Of a stretch of 3,534 nucleotides of DNA, positions 604 through 734 are shown piece by piece. Each line of letters begins with the position of its first letter. Positions within the stretch are counted from its first letter, which is position 1. The DNA lies in the IMG/VR virus record IMGVR_UViG_2648501165_000012. One strand, written 5' to 3'. Source of the DNA: a virus. Its lineage: Duplodnaviria > Heunggongvirae > Uroviricota > Caudoviricetes. The notes under the pieces are model-generated. The model was not told the DNA's origin, did not search any database, and saw only the letters and a program-made list of their open reading frames with translations. Both the position numbers and the translations under genes were made by a program.

Positions 604-615
604 AATTGTATTTAA

Positions 616-628
616 AATCAATTAGTTG
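616..628. promoter_or_regulatory. IHF-consensus site (AATCAAttagTTG), candidate H' site of the P' arm
   Basis: Exact match to WATCAANNNNTTR, located between the putative core (ending at 603) and the tandem repeats (from 637), as the H' site sits in the lambda attP P' arm. Confidence 0.4.
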
Positions 629-636
629 CAAGCGTC

Positions 637-668
637 TCCCCGAAATTCCCCGAAATTTACTCGAATTT
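637..668. repeat. Tandem direct repeats TCCCCGAAAT x2 plus a degenerate third copy (CGAATTT); candidate arm-type Int binding sites
   Basis: TCCCCGAAAT at 637-646 and 647-656 are identical and adjacent; CGAATTT at 662-668 is a partial third copy. The position, 70-130 bp from the int stop and 35-65 bp from the putative core, mirrors the lambda P'1-P'3 arm sites. Confidence 0.45.
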
Positions 669-734
669 CTGTATTCCGGTCTTTTTTGGTTATATCACAA
701 CCAATATACATTTAACAATCCATTTACGTTAAAA

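Follow-up and report, generated by a model that had tools for sequence, protein, structure and literature searches.

The locus

The window, by which we mean the whole 3,534-nucleotide stretch of DNA that we analysed (IMG/VR record IMGVR_UViG_2648501165_000012), is identical to part of the genome of E. coli strain 13E0780 (NZ_CP020106), where the prophage is about 44 kb long and ends at pphA. It contains a host gene, a pair of overlapping small RNA genes, and one end of the prophage:

1-342, + strand: yebY, the host gene upstream of sdsR (113-aa open reading frame; annotated as YebY in the identical genome NZ_CP020106)
372-413, both strands: bidirectional terminator common to yebY and RyeA (from its sequence and the K-12 RyeA 3' ends)
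378-372, - strand: U-run of this terminator; predicted RyeA 3' end at about 371
501-603, + strand: sdsR (RyeB), a sigma-S-dependent sRNA (Rfam RF00111 at 504-603, 116 bits; 103-nt annotation in Salmonella)
570-596, + strand: sdsR terminator hairpin (terminator scan match at 569-597)
607-463, - strand: Rfam match for RyeA/SraC (RF00101, 178.9 bits versus a gathering score of 37, full model length)
735-1811, - strand: prophage integrase, a lambda-type tyrosine recombinase (open reading frame; PF00589, PF22022, PF09003)
1777-2064, - strand: excisionase (open reading frame; PF07825)

SdsR is conserved and depends on sigma-S; the targets reported for this regulator include ompD, tolC, and mutS. Overproduction of SdsR is toxic, and RyeA is its antagonist.

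The integrase gene ends with TGA at 737-735 (- strand). The protein carries both the Phage_integrase and the lambda Arm-DNA-binding domains (PF09003, Arm-DNA-bind_1: 28.1 bits versus a cut-off of 22). Beyond xis, the prophage continues with RalA/RalR, exo, and bet. The RalA antitoxin sRNA is interrupted by 10 N at 2206-2215, and because this run breaks the sequence, its Rfam match scores 111 bits, which is below the gathering score of 170.

The att junction and the P' arm

All of the complete E. coli genomes (5426/5426) match the window up to position 604, where the homology to the host stops. The phage arm beyond 604 is present in 228 of these 5,426 genomes (~4%); E. coli carriers of the junction include O26:H11, O111, and O55:H7 strains. 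We defined the att core by comparing attL (in the window), attB (in the K-12-like L002), attR (in L003), and attP (in L004, which is PP818812.1, a phage record with 96% identity). The integration site of the prophage is the final 27 bp of sdsR, and 604-734 is the P' arm of a lambda-like attL. The junction includes these features:

578-604: att core, 27 bp common to attL, attR, attB, and attP, ACAGGAATCGT[A/G]TTCGGTCT[C/T]TTTTTA (four-way comparison)
570-596: core-type inverted repeat, GACCGAATAC (570-579) and GTATTCGGTC (587-596) (repeat search)
615-627, + strand: IHF-like site (H'), AATCAATTAGTTG, a perfect fit to WATCAANNNNTTR (from the sequence; assigned by analogy with lambda attP)
638-668, + strand: three direct repeats, CYCGAAWTT, putative arm-type Int-binding sites P'1 to P'3 (repeat search)
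661-700: near-invariant block, with three single-base variants among 29 distinct window-type arms (alignments)

The core-type inverted repeat coincides with the stem-loop of the sdsR terminator. It flanks a 7-bp segment, AGGAATC (580-586), which is the probable overlap region; two core-type recombinase sites around an overlap region is the classic layout. At position 589, attL and the phage have A, whereas attR and K-12 have G, so the crossover was to the left of 589. The A at this position turns a U-G pair of the SdsR terminator stem into U-A, and the lysogen's SdsR therefore differs by one base from the K-12 type.

Positions 605-670 look like recombination machinery: they contain the IHF-like site and three Int arm-type repeats (CCCGAAATT at 639-647, CCCGAAATT again at 649-657, and CTCGAATTT at 660-668), and the integrase has an arm-binding domain. 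The IHF-like site is retained as TAA-N4-YTGW in most related arms, and the TTTCG core of the arm-type repeats is invariant in 28 arm clusters. Similar repeats are also found in the P arm at attR (L003).

The near-invariant block at 661-700 contains a second copy of the right half of the core (GTATTCCGGTCTTTTTT at 671-687) as well as the -10 region that is described below. We considered two other roles for this part of the arm. A terminator or structured RNA on the + strand was rejected, as the predicted fold of 604-700 (-11.8 kcal/mol, z = -0.54) is no better than that of shuffled sequences. For a CRP or IHF site within 661-700, we found (by eye) only a TGTGA half-site, without the consensus.

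Other copies of core sequences are present in or near the arms. The P' arm contains an inverted near-copy (665-676) of GAATACAGGAAT (574-585), and AATACAGGAAT recurs as a direct copy in the P arm at attR, at a distance of 185 bp from the core. In IMG/VR locus L066, a deletion fuses the true core straight to GGTTATATCAC, as if both copies of the core had recombined.

The phage record that we used for attP is labelled 'Actinobacillus phage vB_Apl-pPE4' (Actinobacillus pleuropneumoniae). Its integrase is 96% identical to that of the E. coli prophage and its attP bears the enterobacterial sdsR core; the assignment to an Actinobacillus host looks doubtful.

The native ryeA promoter is displaced

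The RyeA of K-12 is transcribed with sigma-70 and is ~270 nt long; its 3' ends were mapped at +261 to +270, and in vitro transcripts are ~270 nt (Choi 2019, PMC6610125). The K-12 -10 element is TATGGT, with TGT before it (mutagenesis primer TGTGTGT-CTCGAG-TGACTATAAAG; Choi 2019, PMC6610125). This TATGGT is on the far side of the att core, at a distance of 45-50 bp. Integration has left it intact but moved it to attR, ~44 kb away from sdsR, and any RyeA that crosses sdsR in the lysogen must therefore start in phage DNA. Also, a read-through operon of sdsR and pphA has been described in K-12; this operon is split in the lysogen, with 44 kb of prophage between the two genes.

At attR (L003:43519-43529 and 43700-43830), the host ryeA promoter faces the P arm of the prophage and points toward the tail-fibre genes. 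A hairpin at 43406-43436 of L003 may stop transcription from the displaced promoter.

A candidate promoter in the P' arm

The features on the - strand that bear on the antisense RNA are:

713-718, - strand: -35-like hexamer TTGTTA (4/6 versus TTGACA), 18 bp from the -10
689-697, - strand: extended -10, composed of TG (697-696), A (695), and TATAAC (694-689), or TGATATAAC
703-732, - strand: second promoter-like site, TTAACG (732-727), 18 bp, TATATT (708-703) (consensus scan; 9.51 bits with a position-weight matrix)
371-682, - strand: predicted chimeric RyeA/SraC, ~311-312 nt (RF00101 match; start inferred from the conserved promoter and published RNA sizes)
682-605, - strand: phage-derived part of the predicted RyeA
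604-578, - strand: att core part of the predicted RyeA
577-371, - strand: host part of the predicted RyeA

The preliminary description assigned 604-720 to a candidate sigma-70 promoter and the 5' region of an antisense transcript. The letters are exactly as it claimed (TTGTTA at 718-713, an 18-bp spacer at 712-695, and TATAAC at 694-689, on the - strand); the TG at 697-696, which extends the -10, is an addition of ours. The site is indeed in prophage DNA beyond the int stop, between that stop (735-737) and the att core (578-604). It is also correctly described as pointing antisense across sdsR toward the terminator at 372-413, which matches the mapped 3' ends of K-12 RyeA. We searched for a - strand terminator between the promoter and sdsR and found none. 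The interval itself needs to be divided: its distal part is the candidate promoter, while most of it looks like recombination machinery. As for the assignment to sigma-70, the TG, the -35 at 18 bp, and the conservation described below favor it, but the T at -7 is absent and the match on sequence alone is not above chance.

Specifically, TATAAC has the A at -11, but it has C instead of the T at -7 by which we recognize a sigma-70 -10 element. By a consensus scan, the window has 3 promoter-like sites, versus 5.5 +/- 2.6 expected; the scan omitted TTGTTA-18-TATAAC because the -10 ends in C. With a position-weight matrix, TTGTTA-18-TATAAC scores 8.59 bits and ranks sixth among the roughly 35,000 positions of the window; the ryeA promoter that was validated in K-12 scores lower, at 6.96 bits. 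Of the dinucleotide shuffles of 605-740 (32% G+C), 39% reach 8.59 bits, and the match to a promoter on sequence alone is not significant. The candidate is at best a weak or atypical extended -10 sigma-70 promoter. Another match in the arm, TTGCAA-15-TACAAT (631-605, 8.30 bits), was rejected as a promoter, both for its lack of conservation and for its overlap with the IHF-like site.

Overall, we think it probable (roughly 75%) that an extended -10 sigma-70 promoter in the P' arm yields a chimeric RyeA in the lysogen. The preliminary description had already suggested that the antisense RNA is a phage-host chimera, and the location of the native promoter, ~44 kb away at attR, supports that interpretation. 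Our comparisons show the layout of the junction, the move of the native promoter to attR, and the conserved promoter elements; we infer the start site, the activity of the promoter in this strain, and its physiological effect, as follows. The promoter (TTGTTA, 18 bp, TG-A-TATAAC) would fire toward the host and start at ~682/681. RNA polymerase would traverse the arm sites, at about +14 to +45 relative to this start, and the att core, continue antisense over sdsR, and halt at the yebY/ryeA terminator near 371. The product would be a ~311-nt RyeA/SraC in which the first ~78 nt are encoded by the phage, 27 nt come from the core, and the rest comes from the host. (The RF00101 model begins at the att core, and the phage-derived 5' segment falls outside of it.) Because the host ryeA promoter has moved ~44 kb to attR, the phage promoter would set the level and timing of RyeA in the lysogen. 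RyeA would then act on SdsR via pairing, RNase III cleavage, and transcriptional interference.

The promoter motif is conserved across related arms

[quoted passage not shown] The 52 distinct arms that we compared, which come from E. coli and Salmonella, all have the pattern [A/T]TGT[T/G]A - 18 bp - TG[A/G]TATAA[C/A/G], with a spacer whose sequence varies. The spacing between the -35 and the -10 is 18 bp in 51 of the 52 arms and 19 bp in the other. Position -7 is C, A, or G across the 52 arms and is never T. Given the C at -7 in the window and the lack of T in any relative, the promoter is probably weak. TG[A/G]TATAA[C/A/G] is also found in six Salmonella contexts.

The spacer, the core-proximal arm, and the 3' end of the integrase gene diverge among related arms. 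In an alignment of 11 diverged representatives, conservation reaches 90% or more in 11 of 14 promoter columns, versus 8 of 30 columns in the spacer and flank (Fisher p = 0.0016); because the -10 and TG columns anchored this alignment, the independent part of the test is limited to the -35 columns and the spacing. Of the promoter-like elements in the arm, TTGTTA-18-TATAAC alone is conserved in the related arms of E. coli and Salmonella phages. Because the motif is non-coding here, coding constraint does not explain its conservation. TGnTATAA adjoins the conserved core-like repeat, and part of its conservation could serve recombination, not transcription.

Among more distant relatives (Yersinia, Serratia, Pantoea, and Cronobacter), the promoter motif is not general. 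The Cronobacter arm retains the -10 and lacks the -35. In distant relatives from Serratia and Pantoea, we found no convincing -10 at the corresponding spot.

Six of the six contexts beside one widespread allele of Salmonella yebY carry an arm with the promoter motif. In the Salmonella yebY contexts L163-L168, the arm-type repeat CCTCGAAATT is present in 2, 3, or 4 copies, and the number of repeats moves the predicted start of RyeA in 10-nt steps (offsets of 68, 78, and 88 from the SdsR 3' end). Several of the Salmonella yebY contexts are remnants in which the integrase is truncated or absent and the promoter motif is still present.

Published SraC RNAs have the predicted size

According to the passages on SraC in Frohlich 2012 (PMC3333887), Shigella flexneri BS176 and Salmonella SL1344 make a form of this RNA that exceeds the one of E. 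coli K-12 by ~35 nt, and there is a 'potential -10 box ~35 bp further upstream' for the longer form. The -10 of the phage sits 40 bp farther from the core than the K-12 -10 does. Furthermore, one S. flexneri genome (L006) carries the same arm as the window, and the Salmonella arms are homologous to it.

For S. Typhimurium 14028, the coordinates given in Levi-Meyrueis 2014 (PMC4014581) are 1979458-1979560 for SdsR and 1979380-1979690 for SraC, which is 311 nt. By these coordinates, SraC starts 78 nt past the 3' end of SdsR and ends 130 nt past the 5' end of SdsR. When mapped onto the window, the start offset corresponds to 681, a G (in GACCGG) that is 8 nt downstream of TATAAC, and the end offset to 371, immediately beyond the U-run. 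For the three-repeat arms of Salmonella, an offset of 78 falls exactly 7 nt past TATAAC.

Thus, the SraC sizes in these published passages match the phage promoter. This support is strong but indirect, as the comparison goes through other genomes of the same species. If the phage promoter is responsible, then the start of SraC in 14028 or SL1344 is expected to read GACCGGAATAC, 7 nt after TATAAC. The dRNA-seq supplements of PMC3293720 have no entry for SraC. The passages on SraC in Frohlich 2012 and Levi-Meyrueis 2014 do not link the longer form to prophage DNA; Frohlich 2012 cites Balbontin 2008.

ryeA promoters may descend from the ends of integrase genes

In relatives of the integrase from Yersinia, the gene ends with ...GTA ATG CTA TAA-AAGACCGAATA, and TGnTATAA corresponds to the last codons of int. 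(In Yersinia, TGCTATAAA comprises the M-L-stop codons of int and directly abuts AAGACCGAATA.) In Cronobacter-type and window-type arms, the true int stop is ~40 nt upstream and there is a non-coding copy of TGnTATAA (this comparison draws on L156:2269-2295, L159:2269-2345, and 689-700 of the window). This suggests that the non-coding copy reflects an old replacement of the integrase gene.

A similar relationship is apparent for K-12. The region of the K-12 ryeA promoter aligns with the 3' end of a second lineage of integrases that target sdsR (...GAG TAT GTT ATG GTT TAG). The alignment pairs L002:1805-1868, in the K-12-like spacer between sdsR and pphA, with L008:679-741 and with L056:951-1014; it spans TGT-TATGGT and ~60 nt upstream of it. 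The local alignment score is 31, versus 16.4 +/- 2.2 for shuffles, and the best blastn E-value is 2.4e-4. The position and orientation of the integrase-end match relative to the core are constant in many loci. The 'native' K-12 promoter looks like a fossil integrase end, and these alignments suggest that ryeA promoters in general descend from the ends of integrase genes.

It is possible, if rather unlikely, that RyeA was never truly host-encoded: its promoter would always have come from the living or fossil integrase 3' end of an element that targets the sdsR terminator, and phages would have been selected to re-create the antagonist of SdsR. Under this scenario, TGT-TATGGT in K-12 would be the decayed ...Y-V-M-V-stop end of one integrase lineage. 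TGnTATAAC in this prophage family would be a fossil ...M-L-stop end that was selected after its coding role was lost. Phages that target sdsR would be selected to re-create the antisense antagonist of the SdsR 'toxin' at each integration, and the copy number of the arm repeats (2-4), along with Int binding downstream of the start, would tune the antagonist.

Alternative explanations

The relationship to integrase ends also raises the issue of whether 661-700 has any promoter activity. It might be a recombination element or a fossil, with a decayed int 3' end and a second core-type Int site; GTATTCCGGTC (671-681) would be the extra core-like site. Antisense RNA would then be absent from the repressed lysogen, or it would arise only by read-through from int and xis on induction. 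This would account for the terminal int codons in Yersinia-type relatives, for the non-coding copy of the motif ~40 nt from the true int stop in Cronobacter-type and window-type arms, and for the near-copy of a core half-site inside the block. It would also fit with the absence of T at -7, with a promoter match that is not above chance, and with the lack of a terminator between int and sdsR, which makes read-through possible. However, an unconstrained fossil should decay like its flanks, and instead both hexamers, the TG, and the spacing are kept while the spacer varies. The analogous int-derived TGT-TATGGT of K-12 is an experimentally proven ryeA promoter. And Shigella and Salmonella produce, by the published passages described above, a discrete SraC of the size that the phage promoter predicts. 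We judge that a block without promoter activity is improbable. The discrete SraC RNAs in species that carry the same arm (again, from those passages) and the conservation over diverged arms also argue against a chance match of the hexamers in AT-rich DNA, with a lysogen that lacks RyeA. Chance would explain why 39% of dinucleotide shuffles match as well or better and why the consensus scan yields fewer sites in the window than expected, but we give this explanation very little credence.

Alternatively, the phage arm might supply the promoter from a different site. If the main antisense start in this strain came from TTAACG-18-TATATT, then it would be near 696 and the RNA would be ~14 nt longer. 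This is the sole - strand site in the arm that the consensus scan reported, it has the best position-weight score in the arm (9.51 bits), and its -10 has both canonical bases, A at -11 and T at -7. The T at 705, which is found in a minority of arms including the window (most have A), is what turns TATTTT into TATATT. But the site is not conserved: most E. coli-type arms have TATTTT, pPE4 has CATTTT, and the Salmonella arms lack the site altogether. Also, 21.5% of shuffles reach its score, and it leaves the published RNA sizes unexplained. We think it quite improbable that this is the main start, and we favor the conserved extended -10 promoter at 689-718.

Comparison to known systems

The concept of a prophage that supplies the promoter for RyeA has already been published for the Salmonella phage PhiW104, and the prophage described here is an instance in E. 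coli. According to a passage in a review (PMC7380047, citing Balbontin 2008), PhiW104 integrates in the last ~23 bp of ryeB/sdsR, internal to ryeA; lysogeny replaces the 5' portion and the promoter of ryeA, and RyeA goes down while RyeB goes up. The change in the RyeA/SdsR balance that the preliminary description suggested was thus reported for PhiW104. The ryeA/ryeB locus is a recognised phage target in Salmonella and Pectobacterium. As in that account of PhiW104, integration here is within the 3' end of ryeB, and the 5' portion of ryeA is replaced. Unlike in that account, the host here is E. coli and the prophage is a different lambdoid phage, with a rac-like early region (RalR/RalA, exo-bet-gam). 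We compared the two by description, and the family-wide conservation of the promoter that we report is in silico only. Because the principle was already published for Salmonella, what we add is breadth: the E. coli case and the conserved architecture of the promoter.

The candidate resembles the K-12 ryeA promoter in being a sigma-70, extended -10 type (TGA-TATAAC here versus TGT-TATGGT) with a weak -35 that faces sdsR and uses the same terminator, and probably in its descent from the 3' end of an integrase gene. The K-12 promoter is 40 bp nearer to sdsR, has T at -7 where the phage site has C, and gives a 270-nt RNA, versus the ~311 nt that we predict here. Outside of TGnTAT, the two sequences are unrelated. 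The SraC of Shigella flexneri and Salmonella, as described in the passages above, shares with our prediction the additional ~35-40 nt relative to K-12, the 311-nt annotation, and a putative -10 that is equally far upstream.

As in lambda attL (BOP'), there are inverted core-type sites around a 7-bp overlap, an IHF-like H' site, and three direct putative arm-type Int sites beside the 3' end of int; the integrase has an N-terminal arm-binding domain, and xis is upstream. Unlike in lambda, an sRNA gene's terminator hairpin serves as the core. Another difference is that an extra ~65 bp lie between P'3 and the int stop, and these contain the promoter-like block and the second core-like half-site.

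Phages with tRNA or tmRNA genes as their targets bring along a new 3' end for the gene, and they thereby restore the part of the target that they displace. Here, the core restores the 3' end of sdsR, and the P' arm would restore the promoter function of ryeA. But in this case the promoter and a non-homologous 5' segment of the antisense RNA are replaced, so the RyeA product is altered, not restored.

Work in K-12 and Salmonella suggests what the consequences would be: RyeA would be altered in amount and timing, SdsR would be altered through pairing, RNase III cleavage, and transcriptional interference, and read-through from sdsR to pphA would be lost. If our prediction is correct, then RyeA would differ as a molecule, and would be under phage control, in ~4% of the complete E. 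coli genomes. This would be lysogenic conversion that acts on a pair of host sRNAs, in a form concrete enough to be tested.

Finally, no terminator follows int (604-735, - strand), so upon induction, transcription of int/xis should continue across attL and yield RNA that is antisense to sdsR. As pure speculation, by loose analogy to sib of lambda, pairing with SdsR and RNase III might act on the 3' end of the int mRNA in the integrated state.
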